Positions 249-16,962 of a DNA stretch of 64,000 nucleotides are shown here, in pieces; within the stretch, counting starts at the first letter, position 1; every line of letters begins with the position of its first letter. Location: positions 96,001 to 160,000 of the forward strand of contig OY970176.1 in the NCBI GenBank assembly GCA_963707955.1. The letters run 5' to 3'. Origin of the DNA: Candidatus Bathyarchaeota archaeon (GTDB taxonomy: Archaea > Thermoproteota > Bathyarchaeia > Bathyarchaeales > Bathycorpusculaceae). The notes under the pieces are model-generated. The model made no database searches, had not been told where the DNA came from, and saw nothing but the letters and a program-made list of their open reading frames with translations. The translations under genes were made by a program, and so were the position numbers.

Positions 249-1160
249 ATGGCCATCAAAAGAGGCATTATTTTTGATATCAAAAAATTCGCAATTGATG
301 ACGGACCTGGGATACGCACAACCATATTCTTCAAGGGTTGTCTTCTGCGCTGCTGGTGGTGCCACAACCCCGAGGGTCAGCTGCCGACATCGGAATTGAT
401 GTACAGAAGAACTAGGTGTGACAGCTGTGCCGAGTGTGTAAGGATCTGTCCGGAAGAAGCAATTTCATGCTCTCTCAAAAGAATATCCATAAATAGGGAT
501 CACTGCAATCTGTGCGGAAAGTGTTGCCAGGTATGTCCAACAGGGGCCCTAACGATTGTTGGAAAGCAAGTGAGTCTAGAAGAGGTCTTGAGAGAGATTG
601 ACAAGGACTCGATTTTCTACGATGAGTCACAGGGCGGCGTGACAGCTTCTGGAGGAGAACCCCTTTTGCAGCTCGATTTTCTAAACGCGCTTCTCAAAGA
701 GTGCAAAGACAGAGACATTCGCACCGCAGTCGATACTTGTGGCTACGCCTCGCATGACGCCATCGACAAAATCAGCGATAAGGTAGACCTTTTCCTGTAT
801 GACATCAAGACTATGGATGAGAAAAAACATATGAAATACACTGGCGTATCAAACAAGCCAATTCTCGAAAATCTCAAGAGATTAGCCGAAAATGGAAGTA
901 ACATTCAGATTCGTTTTCCCATTATCCCAGGAATCAACGATGACAAGGAAAACGTCACCGAAACAGCTGAATTTGTGGCTTCGTGCAGAATAAAGAACAT
1001 AAGTCTTCTTCCTTACCACCGAGCGGGAATCGAGAAGTACAAGAGCCTAAGTAGGACATACAAGTTGAAAAAGATCCAAACGCCATCGGACCAAGACCTA
1101 AGTCTAATCGAAGAAGAACTTGAGGCTTTTGGGTTGAAAGTGAAGATAGGGGGAGGATAG
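249..1160 (+). CDS. Glycyl-radical enzyme activating enzyme (radical SAM) with 2x[4Fe-4S] ferredoxin insert
   Basis: DGPGIRT, GCLLRCWWCHNPE (CX3CX2C), two CxxCxxCxxxCP motifs, SGGEP, LLPYH; adjacent to GRE gene; ATG at 249 preferred over TTG at 228. Confidence 0.95.
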   Translation: MAIKRGIIFDIKKFAIDDGPGIRTTIFFKGCLLRCWWCHNPEGQLPTSELMYRRTRCDSCAECVRICPEEAISCSLKRISINRDHCNLCGKCCQVCPTGALTIVGKQVSLEEVLREIDKDSIFYDESQGGVTASGGEPLLQLDFLNALLKECKDRDIRTAVDTCGYASHDAIDKISDKVDLFLYDIKTMDEKKHMKYTGVSNKPILENLKRLAENGSNIQIRFPIIPGINDDKENVTETAEFVASCRIKNISLLPYHRAGIEKYKSLSRTYKLKKIQTPSDQDLSLIEEELEAFGLKVKIGGG

Positions 1161-1161
1161 C

Positions 1162-3525
1162 ATGAATGAAAGGGTTAGGAAACTGAGGGAACAGAGCATT
1201 AAGACGAAGCCGTATATCACAGCTGAAAGAGCGGTTCTTGTAACGGGGTTTTATGAGAGCGGCGTGGCGAGCCAGCTTTCTGAGCCTGTGCGAAGGGCAC
1301 TTGCGTTCAAGCATGTTCTTGAAAATAAGAAAATCTACGTCGGTCAAGAGGAGCTGATTGTCGGTGAGAGAGGGCCCGCTCCTAAGGCGGTTTCTACGTA
1401 CCCCGAAATATGTTGCCATAGCCTTGAAGACCTCGAAATCCTTAGCACGAGAAAAAAGACGCCATATGCAGTTAATGAGGAAACAAAGAGAACATACAAG
1501 GAAAAGATCATTCCGTTCTGGAAAGGTAGGTCAATAAGAGAGACAATATTCAGTGAGATGTCTCAAGAATGGAAGACCGCTTATCAAGCAGGGGTGTTCA
1601 CTGAATTTCTGGAGCAGAGAGCTCCGGGGCACACGGCTCTAGACAACAAGATTTACGGAAAAGGATTGGTTGATTTCAAGAAAGACATCGCAAGGAGCAT
1701 GCAAAGCCTCGATTTCTTGAATGATCCGAGAGCACACGAAAAGATGGAAGAACTCAGAGCCATGGACATTGTCGCGGACGCTCTTATCTGCTACGGAGCA
1801 AGATACGCTGAAAAGGCGAGAGAACTGCAAAAAAAGGAAAAGAATCAAGCGAGAAGAAAGGAACTGAAGAAGATGGCTGACGTGTGCACTCGTGTGCCAG
1901 CTCACGCGCCACGAGACTTCTGGGAAGCCTTGCAGCACTACTGGTTCATTCACCTCGGAGTAATAACAGAGCTCAACCCTTGGGACGCGTTCAACCCTGG
2001 CAGGCTCGACCAACATCTCTACTCTTTCTACACGAAGGGTTTTGACGACGGAACTTTGACGAAGGAAAGTGCAAAAGAACTCCTGCAGCTGCTTTGGATA
2101 AAGTTCAACAACCAGCCAGCTCCGCCGAAGGTGGGAGTCACGGCAGAAGAAAGCAACACGTACAATGATTTCGCGCTGATAAACACGGGCGGAGTCAAGG
2201 CTGACGGTTCAGACGGAGTGAACGAACTTTCCTATCTGATACTTGACGTCATAGAGGAAATGAGGATTCCTCAGCCTAGTTCGATGGTTCAGATTAGCAA
2301 AAAGACTCCTGACAGTTTCTTGAAAAGAGCATTGAGAATCATAAGGACAGGCTTTGGGCAACCATCAGTGTTTAACACTGACGTCATAATTCAAGAGCTT
2401 CTGAGGCAGGGAAAAAGAATCGAAGATGCGAGAAACGGAGGCGCAAGTGGGTGCGTGGAGACAGGAGCCTTTGGCAAAGAGTGCTACATTCTCACGGGGT
2501 ATTTCAACTTGGTCAAAGTGCTCGAGACCACTTTGAACAACGGTCTGGACCCGAGAACAGGTCAAAAGATTGGACTCGAAACAGGCGACCCCACTAAGTT
2601 CAGTTCTTTTGACGAAGTTTTCGATGCGTTCAAGAGGCAACTCAACTACTTTGTCGATCTCAAGATTAAGGGAAACAACATAATAGAAAGATTGTATGCC
2701 GAACACTTGCCTGTGCCTTTCTTGTCCCTCCTCATAGACGATTGCATATCGAAAGGCAAGGACTACAACGATGGAGGAGCTCGATACAATACGAGCTACA
2801 TTCAAGGCGTGGGACTTGGCACGGTAACAGACTCGCTCGCAGCAATAAGCTATCAAGTTTTCGACACGAAACAGATCGCCATGAGAGAGTTACTCAAGGC
2901 CCTAAAAGCGGACTTCAACGGGTACGAAACCCTCCGTCAGATACTCCTGAACAAAACGCCGAAATATGGAAACGATGACGATTATGCGGACGATGTGATG
3001 AAAGCCGTTTTTGAAGCCTACTACGAGGCAATAGAAGGAAGACCCAGCACGAAAGGCGGCAACTACAGAATAAACCTGTTACCAACGACGGTACACGTCT
3101 ATTTCGGAAGGGTCACAGGGGCCACGGCCGACGGGAGAAAAGCGTTGGAACCATTGTCTGAGGGAGTGTCGCCGGTCCAAGGAGCCGATAGAAAAGGCCC
3201 CACAGCGGTGATAAAATCCGTCTCCAAAATAGACCATGCAAGAACAGGCGGAACCCTGCTTAACCAGAAATTCGCCCCTGAACTCTTGGCCGATGAAGAA
3301 GGATTAGACAAGCTGGCCCATCTCATTCGCACGTATTTCAAACTAGATGGACACCATATTCAATTCAACGTGGTGAATGCTGAGACTTTGCGTGATGCAC
3401 AGAAACATCCCGAAAAATACGGAGATCTCTTGGTAAGGGTCGCAGGATACAGTGATTACTTTGTTAATCTCAGTGTAGAACTGCAGAACGAAATAATCAA
3501 GAGAACTGAACACAAATCCTTCTGA
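1162..3525 (+). CDS. hypD: Glycyl radical enzyme, trans-4-hydroxy-L-proline dehydratase type
   Basis: RVAGY glycyl loop, SGCVE Cys loop, and HypD-typical motifs TYPEICCH, EQRAPGH, WDAF, KFNNQPAPPKVG, ESxTYxDF, LPTT. Confidence 0.88.
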   Translation: MNERVRKLREQSIKTKPYITAERAVLVTGFYESGVASQLSEPVRRALAFKHVLENKKIYVGQEELIVGERGPAPKAVSTYPEICCHSLEDLEILSTRKKTPYAVNEETKRTYKEKIIPFWKGRSIRETIFSEMSQEWKTAYQAGVFTEFLEQRAPGHTALDNKIYGKGLVDFKKDIARSMQSLDFLNDPRAHEKMEELRAMDIVADALICYGARYAEKARELQKKEKNQARRKELKKMADVCTRVPAHAPRDFWEALQHYWFIHLGVITELNPWDAFNPGRLDQHLYSFYTKGFDDGTLTKESAKELLQLLWIKFNNQPAPPKVGVTAEESNTYNDFALINTGGVKADGSDGVNELSYLILDVIEEMRIPQPSSMVQISKKTPDSFLKRALRIIRTGFGQPSVFNTDVIIQELLRQGKRIEDARNGGASGCVETGAFGKECYILTGYFNLVKVLETTLNNGLDPRTGQKIGLETGDPTKFSSFDEVFDAFKRQLNYFVDLKIKGNNIIERLYAEHLPVPFLSLLIDDCISKGKDYNDGGARYNTSYIQGVGLGTVTDSLAAISYQVFDTKQIAMRELLKALKADFNGYETLRQILLNKTPKYGNDDDYADDVMKAVFEAYYEAIEGRPSTKGGNYRINLLPTTVHVYFGRVTGATADGRKALEPLSEGVSPVQGADRKGPTAVIKSVSKIDHARTGGTLLNQKFAPELLADEEGLDKLAHLIRTYFKLDGHHIQFNVVNAETLRDAQKHPEKYGDLLVRVAGYSDYFVNLSVELQNEIIKRTEHKSF

Positions 3526-3834: not shown

Positions 3835-4758
3835 ATGTCTAGTGAGCAGGTTTTCAAGAAAGTTCTAGTTGCTATTGATGGCTCACTTCCGTCTGTTATT
3901 GCTGAAGAACTAACAGTCTTCATGGCTAAGAAACTTGATTCAAATGTGACGGTTCTTCACGTAATATCCCATGAGTTCATGGGTTCCCAGCTTGAGAAAT
4001 ATATTCCAATACTCTACAAGGATGTGCCTCTAGGCACTGGAGGTGCTCTCGAAGAACGTGTTTCTGCAGTGCCAGCCTCGGGCGCACAAGAAGCTGTTGC
4101 AAAAGAGATCACGATGTCATATAGACAAAGAGGCACAGACGTGATTGAAGAGGCTGCAGCCCTCTTCAAAGAAGAAGGCATACCGGTGGATCAGAAGCTT
4201 TTAGAGCATGCTGATCCAGCCGAAAGTATAATAAGAGAGGCTGAAAAGGGAAACTACGATTTAGTAGTTATTGGGTCCAGTGGAGAGGAAGAGAAGAAGC
4301 CGCATTTAGGAAGCGTTGCTAAAAAAGCAGCGTTATACGCCAAAACCTCTGTCCTGATCGCCAGAGAAAAAAGACAGATATCAAGAATAATAGTTCCAGT
4401 CGACGGCTCTGAGCATTCAAAAAAGGTTGTCCATTATGCCGCAATTCTGGCTAAAAAGTTGGGCGTTGAAGTGGCATTACTTCATGTTCAAGAGCCTGAT
4501 TTGCCTCCCAGAATCATGAAAGAAATAGGAACCCGAATACTATCCGAAGCAGCTGGCCAATTTGAAGGTATAAAGCCAGATCAGAAGCTGGCATCGGGCG
4601 ATCCAGCCAAGACTATTATTCAAACGGCAAAAAAAGGGGACTACGACCTGATCCTAATGGGACACAAAGGGCATGGCGTCGTTGCCCAATTTTTACTGGG
4701 AAGTGTAAGCGACCACGTAATCCAATACATAGACCGTTCAGTACTCCTAATAAGATGA
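3835..4758 (+). CDS. Universal stress protein, tandem USP domains
   Basis: Two repeats of VxxDGS...D(L)xxxG...LGSV. Confidence 0.92.
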   Translation: MSSEQVFKKVLVAIDGSLPSVIAEELTVFMAKKLDSNVTVLHVISHEFMGSQLEKYIPILYKDVPLGTGGALEERVSAVPASGAQEAVAKEITMSYRQRGTDVIEEAAALFKEEGIPVDQKLLEHADPAESIIREAEKGNYDLVVIGSSGEEEKKPHLGSVAKKAALYAKTSVLIAREKRQISRIIVPVDGSEHSKKVVHYAAILAKKLGVEVALLHVQEPDLPPRIMKEIGTRILSEAAGQFEGIKPDQKLASGDPAKTIIQTAKKGDYDLILMGHKGHGVVAQFLLGSVSDHVIQYIDRSVLLIR

Positions 4759-4830
4759 GAAATCCTTAACCGGCGCGCGCTGGACAAGATTTTTATTCAC
4801 ATAAACATATTCTCAGATGGGTGAAAGAAT

Positions 4831-5872
4831 TTGTCTTGGTACATAGAATTAGGAAAAGCTGCAGACACTTTGGTAAATTACGTTCTAAAAGTAAAGAAAG
4901 AAGAGGACGTTCTCATATATGGAGATGACATTGTCGATGCTGCCGTACTGAATGCAACAGCGGCAGCAGTCAAATCCGCAGGAGCGACGCCCACCATAGT
5001 CATTCACGAGACGCGAGAAATCTCTTTCACTGAACCTCCTAAGCCTCTTGCCGCAGCAATGATGGACTCTGATGTCACGGTGGAATTCTCAGCTAGGGCC
5101 ATATTATATACCAGTGCGCAGACAAACGCCCTGAAGCGGAACCGGGCCTACATTTGTCTAACGTCCCTTGACCGTGAAGCAATGGTTCGAACCTTAGGTT
5201 GGGTGAACTATCCGAAAATGGTTGAGTTGGGAGACAAACTTGCAGAAATGACTACAAAGGCTGATGAAATCAGGATAACCAGCCCCTCAGGAACGAACTT
5301 TTCCGCCAAAATTGGCGGACGAAAGTTCGAGAATTTCGGAAGCACTGCTGACAAAAGAAAAGTGATAATGTTAGGTGGACAGACGGGCGGTTCTCCCATC
5401 GAGGAGACCGAAAATGGCCTGTTAGCATTTGACGGAAATGTGTGGCCTCCAGACGAGATCAAATCGAACATAAGGACCCCGATAAAATGCAAGGTTGACA
5501 AAGGCGTATTAACTGAAATTTCTGGCGGCGTAGAGGCTGACATACTCCGGAGGTATTTAGCAAGCCTTAAAGATCGCAATATGTACCGGATAGCTCACAT
5601 CTGCTACGGATACCATCCTAAGGCAAGAGTAACAGGCGACATATCAGAGGTCGAGAGAGTCTGGGGTTGCTTCCAAGTAGGTCTGGGGTTCCCAAGGGCC
5701 GCTTCTGAGACCAGACCTTAAAGGCGCCTTTGGATGGAGAGCTGCATCGCACGACGACGGCATCATACTGAAGGCATCGATATACCTTGACGGTGAACCC
5801 GTGCAGAAAGATGGAAAGTTCGTCCACCCTGAGTTGTTGCCAATCATAAAAGAGATGGGCGTTGAACAATAA
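4831..5872 (+). pseudogene. M29/aminopeptidase-T-fold protein split by a +1 frameshift near 5685-5690 (pseudogene or sequence error)
   Basis: ORF 4831-5721 aligns to paralog 14837-15883; the shifted frame continues GSQGP...SHDDGIILKASIYLDG...VHPEL to TAA at 5870-5872. Confidence 0.85.
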
Positions 5873-5884
5873 GATCGCAAATCC

Positions 5885-5896
5885 TCTTTTCTTTTT
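5885..5896 (+). terminator. Pyrimidine/T-rich archaeal-type terminator
   Basis: TCTTTTCTTTTT just after the stop at 5872. Confidence 0.4.
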
Positions 5897-6102
5897 AGCG
5901 CGAGACATGAGGTTTTGGAAAACCTCTTTCGCTCTTCCTAATGATTGCTTGAACCACTTGAATGCACGTAAACAGTGATCGAGAGCGTTTTAGCGCGCGC
6001 GAGGATCTATCGTGAAATGCCCTGCATGCGAATTTAGGAACAGGCATACGCGCTCAAGTTTAAATAGCCTCTTTGATCTAAGGAGGCGTGTGGTGAATCG
6101 GT

Positions 6103-6816
6103 TTGCTGAAGATCTTGTTCATAAACCCTGTCGGAACTAGCGCCCTAGATGAGCACATGCTGGAGACGATAAATGAGGTTAAGAGACCGGACGTAAAACC
6201 TAAGGTCGTTCATTTGTGCAAGGGTCCAGTCCACTTGGAGTACCACTACTATGAACATCTGAATCTTGATGAAACTCTAGAGTGGGTGAAGTGGGCGGAG
6301 AAAGAGGAGTACGATGCGGTGGTCATTGGCTGCTTCTATGATCCGGGAGTAAGAGAGGCCAGAGAGCTTGTTTCGATTCCGGTGATTGTTCCGGCAGAGG
6401 CTACGATGCACGTTGCCGCGACTCTTGGGCACAAGTTTTCCGTAATTGTGGGCAGACGGAAGTCGATTCCCAGGATGGAGAGCAATGTGTACGTCTATGG
6501 GCTTGAGAGGAAGCTTGCCTCTTTTAGGACTATAGAGTTCACGGTTCCGAGGATGGGTTCTGAGCCTGAGAAGCTGAAAAAGGCGATATTGACGGAGGCT
6601 AAGAAGGCTGTTGAGGAGGACGGTGCGGAAGTCATAGTCTTAGGATGCACGATGGAATCTGGATTCATGAAGGAGCTGACAAACAAGCTGAAAGTGCCTG
6701 TTCTGGATGCCGTGGTTACTTCGTGGAAGTACGCTGAAATGATGGCTGACTTGTATCGCAAGGTTGGCCTAGCGCACTCGAAGCTCTACGGGTACGAACC
6801 TCCACCGGACGTCTAA
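6103..6816 (+). CDS. Asp/Glu/hydantoin racemase family protein (hydantoin racemase-like)
   Basis: INP N-terminus, IGCFYDPG and LGCT two-cysteine motifs, PVLD. Confidence 0.9.
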   Translation: MLKILFINPVGTSALDEHMLETINEVKRPDVKPKVVHLCKGPVHLEYHYYEHLNLDETLEWVKWAEKEEYDAVVIGCFYDPGVREARELVSIPVIVPAEATMHVAATLGHKFSVIVGRRKSIPRMESNVYVYGLERKLASFRTIEFTVPRMGSEPEKLKKAILTEAKKAVEEDGAEVIVLGCTMESGFMKELTNKLKVPVLDAVVTSWKYAEMMADLYRKVGLAHSKLYGYEPPPDV

Positions 6817-6945
6817 ATTGACAATTCGCCAAAAATGGGCAAAATATGTGTTGGCACTATGTTACGACTGCACACTTGAGAACCCACCCATGCAGAAAAA
6901 CATATATCGTGTATCATAGCTACAGTGCTCCTAAGGAGGAAAAAA

Positions 6946-8595
6946 ATGAAGTCTTTCTTAAGCAGATCAGCTATTTCAAAAGTATACGCCGCTATCCTTG
7001 CAATAATCATCATCGTAGCTATAATTGTAGGCTCGCTGTACGCCGCAGGTTATTTTCCCAGTTCGACACCAACTGCTAGGATACTGCGTTTCACTCATCC
7101 TGCCCCATGGCACATTGACCCAGCCGTCGGCTCAGACCTAGCCAGCGCGTCTTCTCTCATAAACCTGTACGATCCGCTGGTTTTCCCACAGACTGTGGCA
7201 GAGGGCTCAGGCGTTAAACCCTGGATCGCTACAGTCTGGTCGTCTTCGGCAGATGGTCTAACGTGGACTTTTACAATCAGGCAGGGCGTATTGTTCCACT
7301 CAGGGAATGAGCTGAACGCTACGGACGTTGCCTTTAGCATGAACAGACTTCTGACGATAGGCCAGGGGTACTCATACTTATTCACCCCCTACGTGAGCTC
7401 TGCAAATGCAACAGGCCCGTGGACAGTCGTATTCACGCTTGGCAAACCTTTTGCACCGTTCCTACTTTCGCTCGTTAGGCTGTGGATACTTGACTCCAAA
7501 ACAGTGATTGCCCACGAGACGAGTGGTTCCTACGGCGCAAACGGTGACTACGGCATGGGCTGGCTTGATATTTACGATGCTGGTTCGGGTCCGTTCACGG
7601 TCAAATCAAACTCAGTAACGCTTCTGACCATGACATTCTTCTCGAAATACTGGGGAACTGTTGCACCTCTGCACCCAACTGAAGTTGACCTTATCGCAGA
7701 ACCGACCTCAACGACGGAAATAAGCATGATGGATACAGCCCAGCTGGAGATAACATCGCCTTGGCTTTCAGACCTGCAGTATGGGTCTCTGAATGGTACG
7801 AATGGTATCTACATAGCAAACGTTCCTGAACCCAACGAGTATTATTACATGATGAACACCCTGAAGCCTCCATTAGATGACATACATGTGAGGGAAGCAC
7901 TGGCCTACTGTTTGAACTATACGGGCATGATTGCAGGGTTGTATCCACTAAGCGCAGTGTCTACAAGCTGCGTGCCCGCGAGCGTTGCAGGATACCTCGA
8001 CTGTTCACCCTACTATTACAACGTGACCAAAGCCAAAGAGGAACTCGCGATGTCCAAGTACGCTAATAACATCAGTAGCTATTCCATTGACTTCGATTGG
8101 ATCAACACGGTTCCTATAAGGGAACTAGACGCGGAATACTTCGCAAGTTGCGCAAATGCAATAGGCATAAAAATCAACGTTGTCAGTGAAACATGGATCA
8201 AGTTCGAGTCGGACGTCGGTAGCAAAGCCACGTGCCCCGGCATGGCAAACGTTGAGGTGGATTCGGATTACACTGAGGCAGGCTCACTTCTAGAGGCCCG
8301 GTACAGCTCAGCGTCTATGGGAACATGGGAACAGATGGAATGGCTTAATGACTCAACGTATGATAGTATGTTGGAGCAGGCTCTGGGAACGCTCAACCAA
8401 ACCCAAAGATACGCCCTGTATGGAGAGCTGCAGCAATACATAATGAACCTATGCCCAAGCATGTTCATCTTCGACTATACAATGATTTGCGCAGCTCAAA
8501 AGTACGTCAGCTGGCCTATGGCCAACGTAAGCCAGTCTGTTCCATCGATGGGTTATAACTACGACGGAAGGCTGATACAGATACTGGCGCATTAG
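6946..8595 (+). CDS. Peptide ABC transporter substrate-binding protein (family 5, DppA/OppA-like)
   Basis: IDPA, LYDPLV, WTFTIRQGVLFHSG, GSGPF, VREAL; AGGAGG RBS at 6934-6939; N-terminal hydrophobic anchor. Confidence 0.93.
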   Translation: MKSFLSRSAISKVYAAILAIIIIVAIIVGSLYAAGYFPSSTPTARILRFTHPAPWHIDPAVGSDLASASSLINLYDPLVFPQTVAEGSGVKPWIATVWSSSADGLTWTFTIRQGVLFHSGNELNATDVAFSMNRLLTIGQGYSYLFTPYVSSANATGPWTVVFTLGKPFAPFLLSLVRLWILDSKTVIAHETSGSYGANGDYGMGWLDIYDAGSGPFTVKSNSVTLLTMTFFSKYWGTVAPLHPTEVDLIAEPTSTTEISMMDTAQLEITSPWLSDLQYGSLNGTNGIYIANVPEPNEYYYMMNTLKPPLDDIHVREALAYCLNYTGMIAGLYPLSAVSTSCVPASVAGYLDCSPYYYNVTKAKEELAMSKYANNISSYSIDFDWINTVPIRELDAEYFASCANAIGIKINVVSETWIKFESDVGSKATCPGMANVEVDSDYTEAGSLLEARYSSASMGTWEQMEWLNDSTYDSMLEQALGTLNQTQRYALYGELQQYIMNLCPSMFIFDYTMICAAQKYVSWPMANVSQSVPSMGYNYDGRLIQILAH

Positions 8596-8745
8596 TCAAC
8601 GCGAAGCATGTGACACGCAAATACTCTTCCTCACCCTTTTTCTTTGGTAATAGTCTGATTCTAAGAAGACAGCTACGCGCGCAGGCTAAAGTTTTTTAAA
8701 GGTGGGTTTAACGTAAACATATACAAGTTGAAAGCGGGTTAACTG

Positions 8746-9766
8746 ATGAAGTTTTCATCATACATAGCGAGGAGAATTGTATACATTGTATTCAGTTTAT
8801 TCGGTTTGTCTGTGCTAGTTTTCGTGTTAGCGAGGGTGTTGCCAGGGGATGTGGCGCGAATGACTCTCGGACCGAGAGCCCCCCAATTTGCTGTTGACGC
8901 CCTGCGAAAGCAGCTGAGACTGGATGAACCTCTTCCCGTGCAATATTTTTACTGGTTGATTGACCTTTTTCACGGTAATTTGGGCTTCTCTACGTATACC
9001 CGGGGCAGTGTCACAGCAGTCTGTCTTGGAATACCTTCCTGTGTCGCTTGAGTTGATAACGCTGGCAGCGATATTCAATATTTTAGGAGCATTCCTTCTC
9101 GGCGTGATAGCCGGCAGATACTCCTTCAAGTGGCCTGACAACCTTGTCAGAATTGTTTCTTACGTTGGAATATCCGTTCCGGCTTTCGTGATGGCCATAA
9201 TACTCGAACTGCTTTTCGGTTGGTGGTTGCGTATCTTTCCTGTATCAGGAAACCTAAGCGTTGCTGCTCCTACAAGGATAACGGGGTTTGTTACAATTGA
9301 CTCTTTGATAACCGGGAGATTCGACGCATTCGTCGATGTCCTGTGGCACATGGTGTTGCCTGCGCTCGCGCTGTGCATAGGAGGAATGATGCAAGACGCG
9401 AGAATAATAAGGGCAGGCATGGTTGAAAACCAGGACAAGGACTACGTAACGATGGCGAAATGTGAAGGCTTACCCGAACGGCAAGTCATGTTCAAGTACC
9501 TCCTCAAACCGTCGGTCATACCGGCGATAACAGTTATGGGAATGGACATAGCCGCGCTACTTTCGAATGCCTTCCTTGTAGAGATGGTCTTCAATTGGCC
9601 TGGGTTCTCAAGGCTGGGCATCGCATTCATGTTGAACAAAGACCTCAATGGGATAGTCGCCCTTGTCTTAATAATAGGCATAATATATGCCGTAATAAAC
9701 GTCGTCACGGACATCATTGTTGCCTATCTAGATCCAAGAATCAGGCTGATGGAGAGGGGAGAGTAG
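8746..9766 (+). pseudogene. DppB-like ABC permease split by a +1 frameshift near 9000-9020 (pseudogene or sequence error)
   Basis: N-terminal YIARR...LPGD...LDEPLPVQY in one frame; LPVSLEL...SVPAF...EMVFNWPG...LDPRIR in the next. Confidence 0.88.
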
Positions 9767-9767
9767 G

Positions 9768-10658
9768 TTGAGAGTGGATCTGCTTAACGTGCTGAAACAA
9801 CTGCCTCGAAGGTTGGATTTGAAACGCAGGTGGTACAGGTTCTCAAGAAGCCCCTTATCCATAATGGGACTAATAATCGCAGTCGGGTCCATCGCGATTG
9901 CCCTGTCTGCTCCCTTCATCGCTCCCGATCCGAAAAGCGCAGGTATGTATGTCAACCTTGATGCCCGCCTCCAACCTCCGAGCTGGAGCCATTTTTTCGG
10001 CACGGACGATTTGGGAAGGGACATTTTCAGCAGAACCCTTTTTGGGTTTCAGTATTCTCTTGTGATGGCCGCTGTTGTTATCGCCCTTGTGGCACCGCTA
10101 GGCATAGTTCTTGGTCTTGTCGCAGGCTACTATAGGGGGAAATGGCTTGACACGGTAATAATGAGAATAGCTGACATATTCATTGCTGTTCCCCCATTAG
10201 TCTTGGCCTTGGCAGTGGCTTCGCTGCTGACCCCAAGCGCGTTCAATGCAATGATGGCTGTTTCTTTGATGTGGTGGCCATGGTATACTCGTCTAACATA
10301 CAGCACTTCATCGGCGTTGAGGAATGAGTACTTCGTGCAGGCGGCGGAGGTCATGGGCGCCAGCCCAGGCCACATAATGTTCAGCGAAATCCTTCCAAAC
10401 TGCCTTGGCCCTATTCTGACAAAACTAACACTTGACGTGGGCTGGGTGATACTGCTGGGGTCGGCACTGAACTTCGTAGGGCTTGGCGCACAGGACCCGA
10501 CTGCTGATCTTGGAACAATGGTCTCCAAAGGAGCACAGTACATGCCTCAATATTGGTGGTTGACCATTTTTCCGGCGCTTGCGATAGTCTTCATAATCCT
10601 AGGATTCAACCTGTTAGGTGACGGCATCCGAGACATGTTCACGGAAGAGTCGAGGTAG
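9768..10658 (+). CDS. DppC-like ABC permease
   Basis: HFFGTDDLGRDIFSR, EYFVQAA loop, GFNLLGDGIRD. Confidence 0.93.
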   Translation: MRVDLLNVLKQLPRRLDLKRRWYRFSRSPLSIMGLIIAVGSIAIALSAPFIAPDPKSAGMYVNLDARLQPPSWSHFFGTDDLGRDIFSRTLFGFQYSLVMAAVVIALVAPLGIVLGLVAGYYRGKWLDTVIMRIADIFIAVPPLVLALAVASLLTPSAFNAMMAVSLMWWPWYTRLTYSTSSALRNEYFVQAAEVMGASPGHIMFSEILPNCLGPILTKLTLDVGWVILLGSALNFVGLGAQDPTADLGTMVSKGAQYMPQYWWLTIFPALAIVFIILGFNLLGDGIRDMFTEESR

Positions 10659-10662
10659 CAAA

Positions 10663-11640
10663 ATGGAACTGTTAGACATCAAAGACCTCATCGTCGGCTA
10701 CAATACATACAGAGGTAAACTAAAGGTATTGAACGGCGTACACTTGACAGTGAATGAGGGAGAAAAGGTTGGGGTAATAGGCGAGTCGGGCTGCGGAAAG
10801 ACCACCACCATGAGGACAATTCTGAGAATCCTAGCTAACAACGCTGTTGTCGACTCGGGCGAGATTCTCTTCAAGGGTGAAGATCTGCTTAAGATGAGTA
10901 ACAAAGAAATGACCGATGTAAGAAGAAAGCACATAACCATGATATTTCAAGATCCGACGGCGGCTCTCAACCCAGTGTTTAAAGTTGAAACACAGTTGAT
11001 GGACGTCATCAGGTATTCAGGAACGATAAAGGACGAGAAGGTTACGAAGGAGAAGCTCATGGCCAAGTCTCTGTTACTACTCAAAGAGGTGGCGCTACCA
11101 GATCCGGAAAGAGTGTTGGATAACTTCCCATTCCAACTGAGCGGAGGCATGAAACAGAGAATCTGCATCGCAATGTCATTGGCTACGTCTGGCGATCTTC
11201 TGATAGCCGACGAGCCCACAACAAGTCTTGACGTGACAATACAGGATCAGGTTTTTCGGCTCATGAAGAGCCTCGTGGAGAAGAGGAATCTGTCGGTCAT
11301 TCTGATATCTCACGCGCTCGGCGCCGTACGAGGAACCGTCAACAGGGTCTATGTGATGTACGCTGGAGACATGATTGAAACTGCAGAAACTGAGGAGTTA
11401 TTCACAAACCCGTGGCACCCCTACACACAAGAACTCATAAAATCCGTTCCGAAACTGACGGGAACTGGCTTTTCAGAAGGCATAAAAGGCAGGATTCCAG
11501 ACTACATGAACCCTCCGCCCGGGTGCAGGTTCAATCCCCGCTGTCCCTACGCACTTGACAGGTGTCTAAAGGAGAAGACACAGCTCTTGGGCGAAAGCGG
11601 CGGACACCAAGCAGCTTGCTGGCTGTACGACAAGAGGTGA
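10663..11640 (+). CDS. DppD-like ABC ATPase
   Basis: GESGCGKT, LSGGMKQR, IADEPT, HPYT, C-terminal CRFNPRC. Confidence 0.94.
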   Translation: MELLDIKDLIVGYNTYRGKLKVLNGVHLTVNEGEKVGVIGESGCGKTTTMRTILRILANNAVVDSGEILFKGEDLLKMSNKEMTDVRRKHITMIFQDPTAALNPVFKVETQLMDVIRYSGTIKDEKVTKEKLMAKSLLLLKEVALPDPERVLDNFPFQLSGGMKQRICIAMSLATSGDLLIADEPTTSLDVTIQDQVFRLMKSLVEKRNLSVILISHALGAVRGTVNRVYVMYAGDMIETAETEELFTNPWHPYTQELIKSVPKLTGTGFSEGIKGRIPDYMNPPPGCRFNPRCPYALDRCLKEKTQLLGESGGHQAACWLYDKR

Positions 11641-11645
11641 ACTCA

Positions 11646-12617
11646 ATGGAAAGAAAAGAAGACTTACTCGTCGTACAAGACTTGACTAAACACTTCAAAA
11701 CTCCTCACGGCGTCGTCAGAGCAATTGACGGTATAAACTTCAATATTAAGCTAGGCGAAACCTTTGGCCTGGTAGGAGAATCGGGCTCTGGCAAAAGCAC
11801 AACGGGCTATGTAATAATGGGAATCTACACACCGACATCGGGCAAGATACTTTTCAAGGGCAATGACATTTCGGTGCACGTAAAGCAGCGCCCCAAAAGC
11901 GTCAAAAAAGAGATGGCAATAGTCTTCCAAGATCCAGCCTCATCACTGAACTCCACGAAAACCGTCAAAGACATAGTCGGCTTGCCCCTGAAAGTGCACA
12001 AAATGGTCAAGAATGACGAAGAATTGAATAAAAGAGTGACCGAGCTCTGTGAGGCTGTTGAGCTGCCCGCTGAAGATTTCATGTATCGACGACCGAGAGA
12101 TCTCGGAGGCGGTGAAAAACAGGCCGTCGCCGTCGCGCGTGCCATTGCCACAAACCCATCATTCATAGTTCTAGACGAACCCACATCAGCATTGGACGTT
12201 TCAATTCAGGCAAAAATCATGAAGGTCCTGATGAAGCTGCAACAGGAGCTCAACCTGTCCTACTTGTTCATAACCCACGACCTGAGCCTCATGAGAAACG
12301 TGTCCTCCAGAGTGGCAATAATGTATCTGGCAGAGATCGTCGAGTATGCACCTACACCAATCTTCTTCAAAAACCCCGTGCACCCCTACACTCAGATGCT
12401 GCTCTCTTCCGTGCCAGTAATGACAAAAGAGGAGGAGAAGCTCAAACCCAAGGGAGTGACATCAAAAGGCGAAGTCCCCAGCGCCATTAACCCACCGCCA
12501 GGCTGCCGCTTCCACACCAGATGCTCCCTTGCCAATGCGACGTGCAAGACAAAAGAACCTGCCTTCGTGATGGTAGAACCTGAGCACTTCGTAGCATGCC
12601 ACATGGTGGCAAAGTAA
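11646..12617 (+). CDS. DppF-like ABC ATPase
   Basis: [15 protein letters not shown] (variant signature), LDEPT, HPYT, CRFHTRC...VACH. Confidence 0.93.
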
Positions 12618-12650
12618 ACCGTCGTGCGCGCTAACGCACGTGGTCTCTGG

Positions 12651-13844
12651 TTACGAACCGGTTTCTTTCAGCATCAAGCCGCAGACTGCCTCGGCACCGG
12701 TGAAGGCGGTGCACATGATGACTGCTGGCGTGAAGGATCCGGTGGCCGTGGAGAGATAGCCCGCCAACCAGGGAGCGATAATGGCTCCGATGTATCCTCC
12801 GACGAGTGTTAGCCCGCCTGCAGTTGCTGAGTATGACGCTCCCATGAGCTCAACAGGCATCGCTAGGATTATGGGTGCCATGCTTCCGATGAGGAAACCA
12901 TAAACTATCGCTGATGTCCACAGTGGAAGGCCTAGGGTTGTTCCGGTGAAATAGAGTGCGACTGCAGCGGCGATGGACGTAACCCATATGAAGGGTTTCC
13001 TTATGTGCACGCGGTCAGAGATCATGGGCGTGATGAAACTGCCCGGAACCATACACAACATTATCATCAATGTTACGAGTCCCGCAGCAGTCCCATCCAT
13101 TCCCTTCTGTGTTAATATTAGTTGAAGAAATCCGAACAGGCCAATTTGAGGTGCGAGGAGAAATAGACATGTAATCATCACTATCCACATCTGCTTGCTT
13201 CTAAGCACAACGAAAAGAGACTTTTTGAAAGGAACCCCCTGCTCTTCGCTGGAGAGCATATTCTCATCGGTCCTCAAATTGACTGGTCTTTCCTTTGCTA
13301 ACAATATCCACACTAGGGTCATAGCCAAAGCAAGAATGCCGACGGCGAAGAAAACGCCTTGCCAAGATCCAGTGAGAGGAAGCAGCACGACTGGAGTCAA
13401 TACGAAAGAGGATGCCATGCCGACCTCCATACCCGTGAATATGATGCCGCTGGCTAACGCGTATTGTTTGTATGGGAACCATACGCCCGTCACTTTGGGC
13501 ATGTTCGGGTAGGCAATAGCGTAGCCTGACCCGCACAAAAACATCGTTGTCGCCAGCATGGGGAAACTTGTCGCGAACGCCCTTAGAAGCCCAAAGACAC
13601 CCATTATCAGTCCGCCCATTAGGACGGTTCGTCTAACGCCGAATCGGTCTGCAAACAGACCTGTTGGAATGCAGAGTATAACCAGGGCTAGTGGAACTAG
13701 CGCTAGTAGGAACCCATATTGCGCATCAGTTATGCCTAGCGTCTTCTCTATTGGCGTGATGCAGAACCAAGAAAGTCCCAGAGAGAACATCATCAGCCAT
13801 GTCAGGGCTACCATCGCCCATCGATAAGACGAAACTTCAGTCAT
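12651..13844 (-). CDS. MFS transporter
   Basis: About 12 hydrophobic segments, GLFADRFGVRR motif A. Confidence 0.92.
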   Translation of the reverse strand: MTEVSSYRWAMVALTWLMMFSLGLSWFCITPIEKTLGITDAQYGFLLALVPLALVILCIPTGLFADRFGVRRTVLMGGLIMGVFGLLRAFATSFPMLATTMFLCGSGYAIAYPNMPKVTGVWFPYKQYALASGIIFTGMEVGMASSFVLTPVVLLPLTGSWQGVFFAVGILALAMTLVWILLAKERPVNLRTDENMLSSEEQGVPFKKSLFVVLRSKQMWIVMITCLFLLAPQIGLFGFLQLILTQKGMDGTAAGLVTLMIMLCMVPGSFITPMISDRVHIRKPFIWVTSIAAAVALYFTGTTLGLPLWTSAIVYGFLIGSMAPIILAMPVELMGASYSATAGGLTLVGGYIGAIIAPWLAGYLSTATGSFTPAVIMCTAFTGAEAVCGLMLKETGS

Positions 13845-13867
13845 CTTTTGCCTTCCAATTCGGTGAG

Positions 13868-14197
13868 CTAGCTTTCACGTTGTTTTGAGTCCAAGTATCT
13901 TGCTTTGAGTTCTCTTGCAAACTCCTCAACTATTTCGTCGATGGCTTTCTTGAAGCCTTCCACATCATACATAACAAGAAACTTCTTCTTATCCACTATG
14001 GCCTTTATCCCCTTCAAAAACGGGTCAGGAGCCAATCCTGTGACGTAATTCGGAAGCTCGGCTAGCTTGCTCAAGGCGTCAAGAAGCCTGAAAGGTCCGT
14101 AGAGCGGCGGCTCATTCAGACAGCCCTGCGCACTCGTTGCCAGAAAGACGGCTATTTCCAGTAAATAGTCATTTCCAGTAGCTTTCTTCTCGGACAT
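13868..14197 (-). CDS. Cyclodipeptide oxidase B-subunit-like protein (AlbB/DUF6092-like)
   Basis: FLATSAQGCLNEPPLYGPFRLLDA matches the recalled AlbB pattern YLLSSGRGLLEEPADYGIYRCTDG; 109 aa, helical, 6 bp downstream of a nitroreductase. Confidence 0.8.
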   Translation of the reverse strand: MSEKKATGNDYLLEIAVFLATSAQGCLNEPPLYGPFRLLDALSKLAELPNYVTGLAPDPFLKGIKAIVDKKKFLVMYDVEGFKKAIDEIVEEFARELKARYLDSKQRES

Positions 14198-14203
14198 TTC
14201 TCA

Positions 14204-14752
14204 TCAGTCCAGACTAGTTGGAAACTTGCGACCATACTTGTTCAGAAAAGCGATCTCCCTCAACGGAATCCGCGCGGGCGGCTTTGGAGCCTGTGCTGCA
14301 TAGCCAACTACCACCAAAAGCTCAGGCTCTACACCGTCAGGAATTTCAAGCATTTCTTTCACGGCGAATCGGGAAAAAGATTTCACTACGCACGTTCCCA
14401 AGCCAAGCGCGTGGGCTGCCAAAAGCATGTTTTCAACAGCCATCGAACAGTCTGCCACTGACATGTAATCCCTTCCCAGGGTTCCACCGTCCCTGTACTC
14501 TTTCTCCCTGTCTGAACAGACAAGTATTGCTAGCGGGGTTTCTCCAAGGTAGCCGGGCGACATTTTTCGAATAACCTCAAGAAGATTCCTATCGCTTACC
14601 ACGATGAATTTCCAAGGTTGAATGTTGCTTCCCGAAGGAGCCCAACGTGCTGCATCCAGTATTTTCTCTATAAACTTTTCAGGCACAGGATTCGCCTTAT
14701 ACCGGCGAACGCTTCTCCGACCAAGAATAGCTTCAAAAACATCCATTTTCAT
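14204..14752 (-). CDS. Nitroreductase-family flavoprotein, cyclodipeptide oxidase A-subunit-like (AlbA-like)
   Basis: RRSVRRY, APSGSNIQPW, SPGYLG, AVENMLLAAHALGLGTC; operonic with AlbB-like gene. Confidence 0.85.
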   Translation of the reverse strand: MKMDVFEAILGRRSVRRYKANPVPEKFIEKILDAARWAPSGSNIQPWKFIVVSDRNLLEVIRKMSPGYLGETPLAILVCSDREKEYRDGGTLGRDYMSVADCSMAVENMLLAAHALGLGTCVVKSFSRFAVKEMLEIPDGVEPELLVVVGYAAQAPKPPARIPLREIAFLNKYGRKFPTSLD

Positions 14753-14836
14753 CCATCCGCTTCTGGCATGTGAGTTCTTCAGAAAGTCTTATATTAATTT
14801 TCCAAAGAATACTGGTAATCTGAAAGGTGAAAGAAA

Positions 14837-15883
14837 ATGCCACAGTTTTACGAATACGAGTTGACAAGAGCAGCGCACAAGCTGGTCGCTGAAATGTTCA
14901 AGTTGAAGAAGGACGAAACCTTTGTGATAACTGCGGACACCGAATCAGACCCTCGGGTGGTTGAGGCAACCGCTGGGGCAGCATTCGCTGTCGGAGCCAA
15001 ACCCATGGTCATTTGGACGGCGTCACCCTTGGGCGTAGGCAAAGCGGCAGACCCGATGCTCCCAGTAGAAGCGTTGACGGTTGCGTTGAACAAGGCTGAC
15101 GCGTGGGTTGAATACAACAACGAGTGGCTCCTGTACTCAACGCCGTACGAAAGGGCAATGAAGGAAAACAAGAAGCTCAGGCATATGTGCTTGGTCGGCA
15201 TGAACGTTGACATGATGGTCAGAGTCATTGCGAGAGTCGACCTGCCCACGTTAGGCAAGTTCCAAGACAAGCTGATCGCTCTGACAAAGGCTGCCAAACA
15301 CGTCAAAATGACGACACCTGCAGGAGAAAACATTGAATTTAGCAATGACCCCAAGAGACCGATGATATGCGAAGTCGGATACGCTGACACGCCAGGATCC
15401 CACATGCTCGGTGGCCAAATAGGCTGGTCGCCGATCTTCAAATCTATCAACGGGGTCATAGCCTTCGACGGCTCAGTCGTGCCCCCAATCGGCCTAACAA
15501 AGGCTCCCATAAAACTTCACGTCAAAGAAGGAAACATTGTCAAAATAGAAGGCGGAAAAGACGCACAGACCTTCGAAGCTTGGCTAAAGAGCTTCAAGAG
15601 TCCACTAATGCTACGAATAGCTCACGTCTGCTACGGGGTCAACCCAGGTGCCAAGCTGACTGGAAACATAGTTGAAGACGAGAGAGTCTGGGGAGGCACC
15701 GAATGGGGAATAGGCTACGTTGGTCAAATGCTGACGGGCGGCGAACCGATTCAGGCGCCCTCTCACACGGACGGCATATGCTTGAACACCTCAGTTTGGC
15801 TCGACGGTAAACAGATCTTTGACAAGGGCATGGTAGTTCACCCAGAGCTCGCCAAACTTGCAAAGAAACTCGGGAAATCCTAG
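14837..15883 (+). CDS. M29/aminopeptidase-T-fold protein with variant metal site
   Basis: NGVIAFDG, RIAHVCYGVNP, VEDERVWG, SHTDG, LDG. Confidence 0.85.
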   Translation: MPQFYEYELTRAAHKLVAEMFKLKKDETFVITADTESDPRVVEATAGAAFAVGAKPMVIWTASPLGVGKAADPMLPVEALTVALNKADAWVEYNNEWLLYSTPYERAMKENKKLRHMCLVGMNVDMMVRVIARVDLPTLGKFQDKLIALTKAAKHVKMTTPAGENIEFSNDPKRPMICEVGYADTPGSHMLGGQIGWSPIFKSINGVIAFDGSVVPPIGLTKAPIKLHVKEGNIVKIEGGKDAQTFEAWLKSFKSPLMLRIAHVCYGVNPGAKLTGNIVEDERVWGGTEWGIGYVGQMLTGGEPIQAPSHTDGICLNTSVWLDGKQIFDKGMVVHPELAKLAKKLGKS

Positions 15884-15912
15884 TTCCTTTCCGTTTTCAT
15901 GGTCTGCAAACG

Positions 15913-16962
15913 GTGAGATGTATGATTGACAAGAAGAAATTGGCTGATGGCGCTGTGAACATGCTCAAAGTGAACATGGGACTCAAGAGAGGCGAAAAAC
16001 TCCTGGTCGTCACAGACATCCCGACAGTTGCGGAGTGGGAATCAAAAGACAGCGCCAAGTTGACAGAGGCATTGGAAAGATCGCTTCTAGCCAAAACAGT
16101 GAGCGAAATCGCTGGTGAAAAGTTTCCAGACTGCAAAGTTGAGTTCTACGTTTATCCGTCCATAGGTAAACACGGCACGTACCCGGGAAAAGAAGTTGAA
16201 GAAAAAATGAAAGCCGCTGATGTGGACATTGCAATAACCACTTACTCGCTGACACACACCGACGCTCGGGTAAACTCCTGCAAAGCAGGCGCTCGAGTTG
16301 CAAGCATGCCCATGTTTGTTGCAGAAATGTTCTATACCGGCGGACCGATGGCATCCGATTATCGTGAAATAGACAAAGAAACGAAGAAAATCGCGAACCT
16401 AATCACAGGAACTAACGAAGCGAAAGTAACGTCTCCAGGAGGGACAGACATCACTTTCAGTTTGAAAGGCAGAAAAGGAATGGTTGACGCTGGAATCTTC
16501 ACTGAGAAAGGCTCTTGGGGCAACCTTCCGTCAGGAGAAGCCTACTGCGCGCCCGTCGAAGGATCCGCCAACGGTAGGCTCGTCGTAGAAGCCAACTGGT
16601 ACCCAGACCTCAAGGAAAAGATGACGCTGAAATTCCAGAACGGTTACGTCACCGAGATAATTGGCGGGGGAAAAATCGGCGACGAATACAGAGGCCTACT
16701 CGACTTTAGCAAAAAAGCAGAACCCTACACTTCCAGAAGGAACCTCGCAGAGCTTGGGATAGGAACAAACCCAAATGCGAAACGGCCTGACAACATTTTA
16801 GAATCCGAAAAGATCAAGGGAACCGTTCACTTAGCCATCGGCGATAACTCTCACATGGGAGGCAAAGTGTCCGCAGACCTGCATCAGGACTTCATTATTC
16901 CAAAGCCCACATGGATGCTCGACGGAAAAGCCATGATGAAAGATGGGAAACTCGTAATATAA
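15913..16962 (+). CDS. M29 aminopeptidase (aminopeptidase T-like), canonical metal ligands
   Basis: NLPSGE, AELGIGTN, ESEKIKGTVHLAIG, HQD. Confidence 0.92.
   Translation: MRCMIDKKKLADGAVNMLKVNMGLKRGEKLLVVTDIPTVAEWESKDSAKLTEALERSLLAKTVSEIAGEKFPDCKVEFYVYPSIGKHGTYPGKEVEEKMKAADVDIAITTYSLTHTDARVNSCKAGARVASMPMFVAEMFYTGGPMASDYREIDKETKKIANLITGTNEAKVTSPGGTDITFSLKGRKGMVDAGIFTEKGSWGNLPSGEAYCAPVEGSANGRLVVEANWYPDLKEKMTLKFQNGYVTEIIGGGKIGDEYRGLLDFSKKAEPYTSRRNLAELGIGTNPNAKRPDNILESEKIKGTVHLAIGDNSHMGGKVSADLHQDFIIPKPTWMLDGKAMMKDGKLVI

Follow-up and report, generated by a model that had tools for sequence, protein, structure and literature searches.

A conserved importer and hydrolase island of an anaerobic archaeon, with a possible role in cyclic-dipeptide breakdown

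What could a gene pair resembling a cyclodipeptide oxidase (CDO) do beside a peptide importer and several peptidases, in a genome holding no synthase for cyclic dipeptides? This question is raised by a 64,000-nt stretch from Candidatus Bathyarchaeota archaeon (assembly GCA_963707955.1, contig OY970176.1, positions 96,001 to 160,000; hereafter the window), in which positions 228–16962 form a gene island. An initial annotation of the part at 4831–16962, made from the letters alone, had proposed uptake and catabolism of cyclic dipeptides (2,5-diketopiperazines). Our analysis leads us, tentatively, to a similar view: the island may take up and hydrolyse cyclic dipeptides, most likely ones with much proline (Pro) or hydroxyproline (Hyp). 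The initial proposal is partly supported: the gene set is conserved with an importer and without a synthase, and its enzyme families known to act on ring amides fit a cyclic substrate, which stays tentative; a major facilitator superfamily (MFS) transporter does not stand as a member of the set.

Conservation of the gene set around a NicX-like gene

The island encodes three paralogs of the M29 peptidase fold (A, B and C), two of which, A and B, resemble the dioxygenase NicX and are called NicX-like hereafter. NicX-like genes were sought by a pattern scan of a single genome for each species, which yielded 461 matches; 387 of these held up on confirmation, and the best 80 were retained, corresponding to 79 loci with at most 10 kb on each side of the gene. 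Genes were called by searching six-frame open reading frames (ORFs) with the window proteins and the DUF6092 profile, and the counts below refer to the 66 loci that span 8 kb or more. No dereplication was applied: overlapping pairs (L016/L024, L018/L026 and L020/L038) are included, as are several metagenome-assembled genomes giving two or three loci each. The relatives of paralog B are 61–96% identical across the 79 loci, which come from many phyla, and 61–75% identical in the bacterial ones. A Dpp-type ATP-binding cassette (ABC) system occurs in 44 of the 66 loci and a second peptidase in 43 (M29 of the paralog-C type in 30, M20 in 14), the racemase is found in 28 and the pair formed by a nitroreductase and a DUF6092 protein in 19. 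At least two NicX-like copies are present in 13 loci, and 10 hold neither ABC system, second peptidase, pair nor racemase. The conserved core is a NicX-like gene with a second peptidase (M29 or M20) and an importer, often supplemented by the racemase and the oxidase pair. The 19 loci bearing the pair include 15 with the ABC system, 17 with a second peptidase and 12 with the racemase.

The arrangement is most compact in seven bacterial loci, where one strand carries one or two NicX-like genes, M20, nitroreductase, DUF6092, the substrate-binding protein, two permeases, two ATPases and usually a racemase (L046 from Aerophobetes, L049 from Caldisericota, L053 from Coprothermobacterota, L063 from Bipolaricaulota, L040 from Cryosericum, L043 from Thermodesulfobiota, and L031). 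A chance neighbourhood is ruled out by this gene order, which is kept across phyla. Going by record titles, NicX-like genes with the pair no more than 10 kb away come from Bathyarchaeia, Cryosericum, Thermodesulfobiota, Coprothermobacterota, Aerophobetes, Caldisericota, Syntrophobacterales, Bipolaricaulota and Thermotogae, and the module is present in cultured anaerobes, for example as the core form in Atrimonas thermophila. Within the genus, synteny extends over the full island in one genome, another has it split into two loci, and in a neighbouring genus DUF6092, paralog C, racemase and nitroreductase follow one another in a different order. The initial annotation had named beforehand a lack of conservation of the gene combination as grounds for giving up its proposal; the same set is found again as an operon across many lineages of archaea and bacteria, accompanied by an importer and by no synthase.

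Co-occurrence was also examined at the scale of whole genomes, using an even sample of 401 genomes from the host's phylum, 31 of which carry DUF6092. A NicX-like gene, called at 35% identity or more to paralog B (a cut of our own choosing), is present in 37 of the 401 genomes: 17 of the 31 with DUF6092 and 20 of the other 370. This co-occurrence is supportive and is not a statistical test, because related genomes are not independent.

Other forms of the locus were encountered in the NicX-centred set. Locus L088 (Firmicutes bacterium UBA3567, 1–14470) carries on one strand a Dpp system, DUF917, a NicX-like gene and two racemase paralogs, followed by a second DUF917, a third racemase, an M29 gene like that of paralog C and a fourth racemase; it is an unusually rich form, which unites both kinds of ring-opening partner. 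In five Bathyarchaeia loci (L064, L068 and L073–L075) the NicX-like gene has neither importer nor peptidase nor oxidase pair beside it, a second, different context: all five hold an ARMT1-like phosphatase, an FMN reductase and a CGI-121 homologue, and in L068 and L073–L075 the NicX-like gene adjoins a DAO-family flavoprotein.

Catalytic residues of the enzymes and the anaerobic host

The three M29-fold paralogs of the initial annotation are confirmed by their pairwise identities (36% between A and B, 26–27% between C and either of them) and by the fact that NicX (PDB 7cn3) is the sole solved relative matched by sequence for each. The division into two variant proteins and a canonical one holds at the level of residues. 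Paralogs A and B gave no Pfam match in a set that included the M29 model PF02073 and was without PF26233; relatives of B up to 89% identical carry PF26233, named NicX, and A and B belong to this family. Both keep the His/His/Asp metal triad of NicX, given in paralog B by H263, H310 and D312, which are invariant in a nine-sequence alignment (A1) and align with NicX H265, H318 and D320; paralog B retains in addition Glu177 and His189 of NicX. The first M29 metal site is lost in A and B, with Gln194 in place of Glu and no site-1 His. Paralog C shows a two-metal pattern (E209, E280, E299, H306, H324 and D326) with the spacing of CgnB and the M29 peptidases as given in the text of PMC10070186, an agreement of pattern and not of structure. 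Homologues of paralog B number 1804 at E ≤ 0.001; a structure model built from alignment A1 reached a mean pLDDT of 59.6, too poor for a fold search.

The pair annotated as AlbA/AlbB-like bears out that description. In the PDB, the nitroreductase matches best two A subunits of CDOs, 9exv_A (1.4e-30) and 8uc3_A (1.9e-27), and the DUF6092 protein matches only the AlbB chains 9exv_C (8.4e-5) and 8uc3_D (0.03); the two genes are 7 nt apart, both on the minus strand. In the B subunit, Glu29, Pro30, Tyr33, Phe36 and Arg37 align with E32, P33, Y36, F39 and R40 of NdasCDO-B, and all 46 homologues collected have the Tyr, the following Gly and the Arg. This Tyr is the catalytic one of subunit B (Y37 in AlbB, Y36 in NdasCDO-B) and the proposed catalytic base. 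In the A subunit, R12, R13, R16, S42, N43 and S125 align with R28, R29, R32, S58, N59 and S145 of NdasCDO-A, which contact the flavin mononucleotide (FMN). The gene pairing, the catalytic Tyr motif and the FMN contacts together predict a CDO. In one family of the phylum sample (f27; L132 and L138–L142), nitroreductase and DUF6092 are fused in an ORF of about 300–350 aa, which matches the fused CDO-AB described in the text of PMC11055893; three of these fusions have a weak radical-SAM-like match about 1.5 kb away. The annotated MFS transporter is present, downstream of the pair and on the same strand. As a member of the module it was ruled out, being present in only 2 of the 66 related loci.

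The enzyme described as hydantoin-racemase-like has its best PDB matches with the hydantoin/allantoin racemases 3qvj (4.5e-23) and 5lfd (1.3e-21), followed by OpaE (9qbx, 1e-18). In the alignment, its Cys77 and Cys182 coincide with the motifs ACFGDPG and LGCGG of 3qvj and 5lfd, and with its PF01177 match it belongs to the Asp/Glu racemase superfamily, with both catalytic cysteines. OpaE acts on a cyclised peptide made by a non-ribosomal peptide synthetase (NRPS; PMC12661438, PMC7530659), and the other solved relatives act on hydantoin and allantoin. The importer was likewise recovered whole by Pfam (binding protein, two permeases, and two ATPases with oligo_HPY). Its binding protein is closest in the PDB to E. 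coli DppA (8e-25), and relatives scoring 267–504 bits adjoin NicX-like genes in other phyla. Two DppA residues that hold the peptide termini, Arg355 and Asp408, were considered and then dropped as evidence, the alignment being too weak (E 8e-25): Arg355 falls inside a five-residue insertion absent here, and Asp408 is replaced by a Val beside a Glu.

The host genome (2.35 Mb, a single contig, 97% complete) has one DUF6092 gene. The absence of a cyclodipeptide synthase (CDPS) and of an NRPS from the window, as initially annotated, extends to all 2.35 Mb, where neither PF16715 (CDPS) nor the NRPS condensation domain PF00668 was found with positive controls; no CDPS was found either in five of five other carrier genomes examined. 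Binding-protein-dependent ABC systems import, and this, together with the lack of CDPS and NRPS, argues for catabolism rather than synthesis. Furthermore, no heme-copper or bd terminal oxidase was found in the host genome. Freshwater sediment, peat and soil are the labels of the sequencing runs in which this DNA occurs, and the carrier lineages (by record titles Atribacterota, Bathyarchaeia, Thermotogae and others) are known mainly from anoxic habitats. Because there is no terminal oxidase and the island itself encodes an oxygen-sensitive glycyl radical enzyme, an oxygenase role of the NicX-like proteins and an oxygen-dependent CDO cycle are unlikely, and so is oxygen as the acceptor of the CDO-type flavoenzyme here.

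A possible route for cyclic dipeptides and its alternatives

Which reactions could such a set perform? The island would be a catabolic uptake module for small ring amides derived from peptides, most likely 2,5-diketopiperazines with much Pro or Hyp. In the route that we tentatively prefer, the Dpp-type binding-protein-dependent ABC system would import a cyclic dipeptide, and the NicX-family M29-fold enzyme, with its single His/His/Asp metal site, would open the ring hydrolytically, hydrolysis being more likely than an oxygenase reaction for the NicX-like proteins here. A second peptidase of ordinary type, M29 paralog C in this island and M20 in many bacteria, would split the resulting dipeptide. 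Importer, NicX-like enzyme and ordinary peptidase would thus correspond to the minimum for the use of a cyclic dipeptide, that is, uptake, ring opening and dipeptide cleavage. The two-thiol hydantoin-racemase-like enzyme may epimerise the alpha-carbons of the ring and make D-containing rings usable, and the AlbAB-like flavoenzyme may dehydrogenate ring side chains or reduce dehydro forms, with an acceptor other than oxygen. Hydroxyproline set free would pass to the adjacent glycyl-radical dehydratase HypD. Among diketopiperazines, those with Pro form with the greatest ease, and epimerisation at ring stereocentres is facile, which would explain both the racemase and the Hyp/Pro neighbours. A cyclic substrate fits because all module families with characterised members (CDO, hydantoin/allantoin racemase together with OpaE, and NicX) act on ring amides: characterised CDOs act on diketopiperazines, as stated in the text of PMC11055893, and the substrate of NicX is 5-hydroxy-2-pyridone (PMC7910607).

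The link with hydroxyproline comes from the first genes of the island. HypD scores 1329 bits on the NCBIfam equivalog NF043068 (cut-off 1100) and has 6vxc as its best PDB match (1087 bits), and the activase scores 414 bits on NF043069 (T4HPD activase), just under the cut-off of 425. Both genes lie between or beside module genes in six Bathyarchaeia loci (L016, L017, L018, L022, L024 and L026). Other, non-homologous genes of Pro/Hyp catabolism beside NicX-like genes belong to the Pro_racemase family (5 loci), AcnX (6), the DHDPS family (4), DAO (7) and the 2Fe-2S/flavin subunit (5), and in a genome of the same genus (G003, L013:7452–8441) a gene of the ornithine-cyclodeaminase/pyrroline-2-carboxylate-reductase family (OCD-type) is inserted between racemase and paralog A. 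A specific marker (HypD, Pro_racemase, AcnX or OCD-type) is found within 10 kb in 13 of the 66 loci, and any Pro/Hyp gene in 20. In the phylum sample, 9 of 16 HypD-positive genomes (14 above the cut-off and 2 with partial copies) have a NicX-like gene, compared with 28 of the 385 others, a difference in which one family weighs heavily. Pyrroline-5-carboxylate reductase (TIGR00112), for which HypD would make the substrate, was not found at its cut-off in the host genome, where the best score, 19.6 bits, is that of an aspartate-dehydrogenase-like ORF.

Several observations weigh against a role in cyclic-dipeptide breakdown. Gene identities, catalytic residues, the conservation of the set as an operon, the lack of a synthase and an anaerobic host are shown by the sequences, whereas the substrate class and every enzymatic step are inferred. 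The commonest form of the module, made of NicX-like gene, peptidase and ABC system without pair or racemase, would by itself also fit linear peptides; Hyp/Pro genes are absent from 46 of the 66 loci even by the loose count, and in thermophiles sugars can be ligands of Dpp/Opp-type binding proteins. Concerning the flavoenzyme, Cys102 aligns with the FMN-linking Cys of AlbA and is one residue off with respect to NdasCDO-A (Cys121), and this Cys is retained in only 19 of 52 A-subunit homologues. Known CDOs assemble into filaments and carry out an alpha,beta-dehydrogenation of diketopiperazines that requires oxygen, and this chemistry meets here a host without terminal oxidase. Finally, the survey of DUF6092–nitroreductase pairs that the initial annotation had proposed gives a divided answer: approached from the NicX-like gene the module is found, as counted above, whereas it is rare from the DUF6092 side. 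Among 30 DUF6092-anchored loci of the phylum sample examined besides the window, a NicX-like gene is nearby in only 2, both from one genus; DUF917 occurs in 7, in most cases together with a racemase and a hydantoinase-like gene, and a gene like that of paralog C in 4; the A–B fusions account for 6, and the rest are bare pairs, some on short contigs. At the genome level, where the link is stronger, a single family (f34) contributes 12 of the 17 co-occurring genomes, and in it the pair and the NicX-like gene are unlinked. The pair is a movable accessory, which joins either a NicX-like or a DUF917/hydantoinase module.

The import of linear peptides resistant to peptidases would make the NicX-like proteins specialised dipeptidases, acting on the X-Hyp or Hyp-Hyp imido bonds of plant glycoproteins or collagen, or on D-residue or N-blocked peptides, with pair and racemase as side activities on some substrates. 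We regard this, the main alternative, as unlikely, although it accounts well for the commonest form of the locus, for HypD and the other hydroxyproline genes close by, for the aminopeptidase fold and for the source habitats, which are rich in plant glycoproteins. What it leaves unexplained is why two distinct hydrolase-fold enzymes are conserved, more than a dipeptide needs, why the NicX-like proteins are without the first M29 metal site, and why a CDO-type pair and a ring racemase lie within 10 kb in 19 and 28 of the 66 loci and on one strand with the importer in the seven bacterial ones. Neither the CDO family nor that of the racemase has a member known to act on linear peptides (PMC11055893). 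It would be still less expected for the module to serve, as a variant of the hydantoinase route, five- or six-membered ureide rings (5-substituted hydantoins, allantoin-like compounds or dihydropyrimidines), racemised by the racemase, opened by the NicX-like enzyme and finished by M20 or M29 as a carbamoylase. The closest solved relatives of the racemase are indeed hydantoin and allantoin racemases, and elsewhere CDO pairs have DUF917 and hydantoinase/oxoprolinase genes as neighbours. However, the importer is of the peptide type and the M20 partner matches best the ArgE/DapE-type deacylase/peptidase models, with no hydantoinase or carbamoylase model among its 25 best NCBIfam matches. Moreover, paralog C is aminopeptidase-like and would need a free amino terminus, and the hydroxyproline link would have no place. 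A 2024 study did propose hydantoin, allantoin or purine metabolism for CDO clusters (PMC11055893).

The remaining two alternatives concern the NicX-like proteins themselves. That they are true Fe(II) ring-cleaving dioxygenases of a hydroxylated N-heterocycle (pyridone or pyrazinone) is very improbable, even though paralog B retains His265, His318, Asp320, Glu177 and His189 of NicX. The Fe(II) ligand Ser302 of NicX lies in a segment that could not be aligned and has no conserved Ser or Thr, the substrate-guiding His105 is replaced by an invariant Tyr (Tyr100), and no nicotinate-pathway (nic) genes were found near the island; the traits that go with the dioxygenase function of NicX, namely His105, nic neighbours and an aerobic host, are thus not found here. 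The host without terminal oxidase, the glycyl radical enzyme in the same island and the mainly anoxic lineages of the carriers point in the same direction. It is just as hard to credit that the island imports and tailors a diketopiperazine or peptide signal, or makes a peptide natural product, with the M29-derived proteins as peptide-binding scaffolds. There is a precedent in CgnB and CgnE of crocagin biosynthesis, M29-derived proteins without a hydrolytic role according to the text of PMC10070186; paired paralogs of which one has a degenerate site recur (at least two copies in 13 of the 66 loci), and novel peptide metabolites are mentioned in the 2024 text (PMC11055893). Yet the conserved set comes without synthase, precursor peptide or exporter, it keeps importer and peptidases, and the NicX-like site is invariant and not degenerate.

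The breakdown of cyclic dipeptides is the best, if tentative, reading. A more ambitious version of it is doubtful: the NicX-family M29-fold proteins of anaerobes would be the missing diketopiperazine hydrolases and would form, with a dipeptidase, an epimerase and an oxygen-independent CDO-type flavoenzyme, a widespread, horizontally spread pathway on which anaerobic archaea and bacteria live from cyclic dipeptides, above all those containing Pro and Hyp, the Hyp passing to HypD. If true, it would give a first physiological role and context to synthase-less CDO-type flavoenzymes (88% of the known clusters in the text of PMC11055893), to CDO chemistry without oxygen and to the large anaerobic branch of the NicX family, as well as a supply route for the hydroxyproline that HypD consumes in peat and sediments. 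Among small peptide products, diketopiperazines rank with the commonest in nature and in food, and the module offers clonable candidates for each step of their degradation as well as candidates for the role of synthase-less CDOs. As to the enzymes that hydrolyse them, Perzborn et al. (2013) present these as unclear and report in the text that tested peptidases do not cleave diketopiperazines (PMC3852281). Our literature searches found no paper naming a gene for a diketopiperazine or cyclic-dipeptide hydrolase, no catabolic gene cluster and no paper under "DUF6092".

Boundaries of the island and comparison with known systems

All genes that the initial annotation listed for 4831–16962 were found in place by Pfam and PDB sequence matches (Table 1). 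Of its 12-kb locus, the listed genes stand and the start moves, since the island opens at 228 with the HypD activase and HypD. The limits 228–16962 follow from the unrelated genes that precede the activase in the 12 kb upstream of the window (tRNA ligase, aspartate dehydrogenase, GNAT, aminotransferase, deacetylase and CdvA) and from same-genus synteny, which stops directly after paralog C. For the latter reason, a flavoprotein at 17965–19218 and a pyruvate kinase were dropped as parts of the island. The flavoprotein, on the minus strand just past the island, is a pyridine-nucleotide-disulphide oxidoreductase with a rubredoxin-reductase C-terminal domain; it is conceivable as an electron partner of the flavoenzyme, and neither the same-genus locus L011 nor the 79 NicX-like loci were found to have such a gene next to the module. 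The end of paralog C is overlapped by a 158-aa ORF (16911–17387), conserved in the same-genus genome over the first 56 residues alone; it has no Pfam or NCBIfam match and may not be a gene. The sequencing runs listed as holding this stretch include no RNA run.

Table 1. Genes of the island and of its immediate surroundings (window coordinates)
Feature	Coordinates	Strand	Matches and remarks
Probable HypD activase, glycyl-radical activating enzyme	228..1160	+	Radical_SAM + Fer4 domains; NCBIfam NF043069
trans-4-Hydroxy-L-proline dehydratase HypD, glycyl radical enzyme	1162..3525	+	NCBIfam NF043068; PDB 6vxc
Tandem universal stress protein (neighbour)	3835..4758	+	PF00582, 7.9e-48; kept in same-genus genome (L011)
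NicX-family M29-fold paralog A, ~346 aa, intact	4831..5872	+	PDB 7cn3 (NicX), 1.4e-8
Hydantoin/allantoin-racemase-like two-thiol epimerase	6103..6816	+	PF01177, 1.6e-37
Family-5 (Dpp/Opp/Nik type) substrate-binding protein, SBP_bac_5	6925..8595	+	PF00496, 2.2e-52
ABC permease, DppB type	8746..9766	+	PF00528; two frames in assembly (BPD_transp_1 8960-9766)
ABC permease, DppC type	9768..10658	+	PF00528 + OppC_N
ABC ATPase, DppD type	10618..11640	+	ABC_tran + oligo_HPY
ABC ATPase, DppF type	11562..12617	+	ABC_tran + oligo_HPY
MFS transporter	12651..13844	-	PF07690, 9.5e-40
CDO B subunit, DUF6092, AlbB-like (predicted)	13868..14197	-	PF19585, 5.3e-21
CDO A subunit, nitroreductase fold, AlbA-like (predicted)	14204..14752	-	PF00881, 9e-36
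NicX-family M29-fold paralog B, most conserved gene of the module	14837..15883	+	PDB 7cn3 (NicX), 8.8e-14
M29 aminopeptidase-like paralog C, two-metal ligand pattern	15913..16962	+	PF02073, 29.2 bits (cut-off 27); PDB NicX, 1.8e-9

Paralog A is interrupted in the assembly, where one extra base at 5682, by comparison with the same-genus genome (L011), gives an apparent stop at 5721. The last 57 codons run on in the next frame to 5872 and include the conserved SHDDG motif. The frameshift is an assembly error, because base 5682 is missing from the contigs of three sequencing runs (X1, X3 and X4), the likely source sample included; the gene is intact and does not encode a 296-aa protein. The first permease is probably affected by a second assembly indel, residues 1–95 and 74–340 of its same-genus orthologue mapping to two frames of the window that are split near 8960–9030. 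Given single-base indels of this kind, other apparent frameshifts of the genome may be artefacts too.

How does the island compare with systems already described? It is a member of a class described in 2024, the function of which is unexplained. The initial annotation had taken AlbAB-type pairs to sit normally in CDPS clusters, a view that is outdated: Andreas et al. (Nat Commun 2024) give only 12% of 274 CDO clusters as holding a CDPS. In the text of that paper (PMC11055893), the other clusters are enriched in hydantoin racemases, DUF917, AroM, di/oligopeptide ABC, OPT and EamA transporters and varied peptidases; synthase-less clusters occur in archaea, some in anaerobes, and the authors suggest purine/hydantoin metabolism or new peptide metabolites. 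The island shares with them nitroreductase and DUF6092 without CDPS, and hydantoin racemase, di/oligopeptide ABC system and peptidases as neighbours. It differs in that the text names DUF917 and AroM and not the NicX family or HypD, which Supplementary Fig. 1 and the supplementary data may show. Compared with the paper texts, and leaving aside these supplements, what appears to be new is the conserved central place of the NicX family in a large variant of these clusters, the core with its two hydrolases, the connection to HypD and other hydroxyproline genes, and the reading as diketopiperazine catabolism.

At the level of the single enzymes, the pair has in common with AlbAB and NdasCDO (PDB 8uc3, 9exv) its two subunits, the E-P-x-x-Y-G-x-x-R motif of subunit B and the FMN-contacting Arg, Ser, Asn and Ser of subunit A. 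Unlike them, it has no CDPS partner, its host is anaerobic, the Cys of the 8-alpha-S-cysteinyl FMN is not general among its homologues, and it shares its strand with the MFS gene here and with the importer operon in bacteria. Paralogs A and B share the metal triad of NicX, the 2,5-dihydroxypyridine 5,6-dioxygenase of Pseudomonas putida (PMC7910607); the likeness is remote (E 1e-8 to 1e-13), the context is not that of a nicotinate pathway and the hosts are anaerobic. With the M29 aminopeptidases (AmpT 2ayi, PepS 4ics and AmpS 1zjc) and their non-hydrolytic derivatives CgnB and CgnE all three share a fold; paralog C scores above the Pfam M29 threshold and shows the spacing of the two-metal pattern, whereas A and B fail that model and are without the first metal site.

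As a pathway, the module recalls the hydantoinase process, in which a ring stereocentre is racemised, the ring opened and the linear product hydrolysed. In contrast to that process, no hydantoinase of the amidohydrolase fold or the ATP-dependent kind is encoded in the window, a peptide-type importer stands in place of an NCS1 permease, and the second hydrolase is of the aminopeptidase/deacylase type. Lastly, the first two genes of the window are the HypD and activase system of anaerobic hydroxyproline catabolism. Papers on the Thermococcus hydroxyproline cluster mention, in their accessible portions, PFL-like genes nearby and no peptidase or ABC genes, and our searches found no related work linking hydroxyproline gene clusters with aminopeptidase, dipeptide or ABC genes. 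The difference from the known system is that HypD is joined here to a module for import and hydrolysis, which may supply its hydroxyproline.

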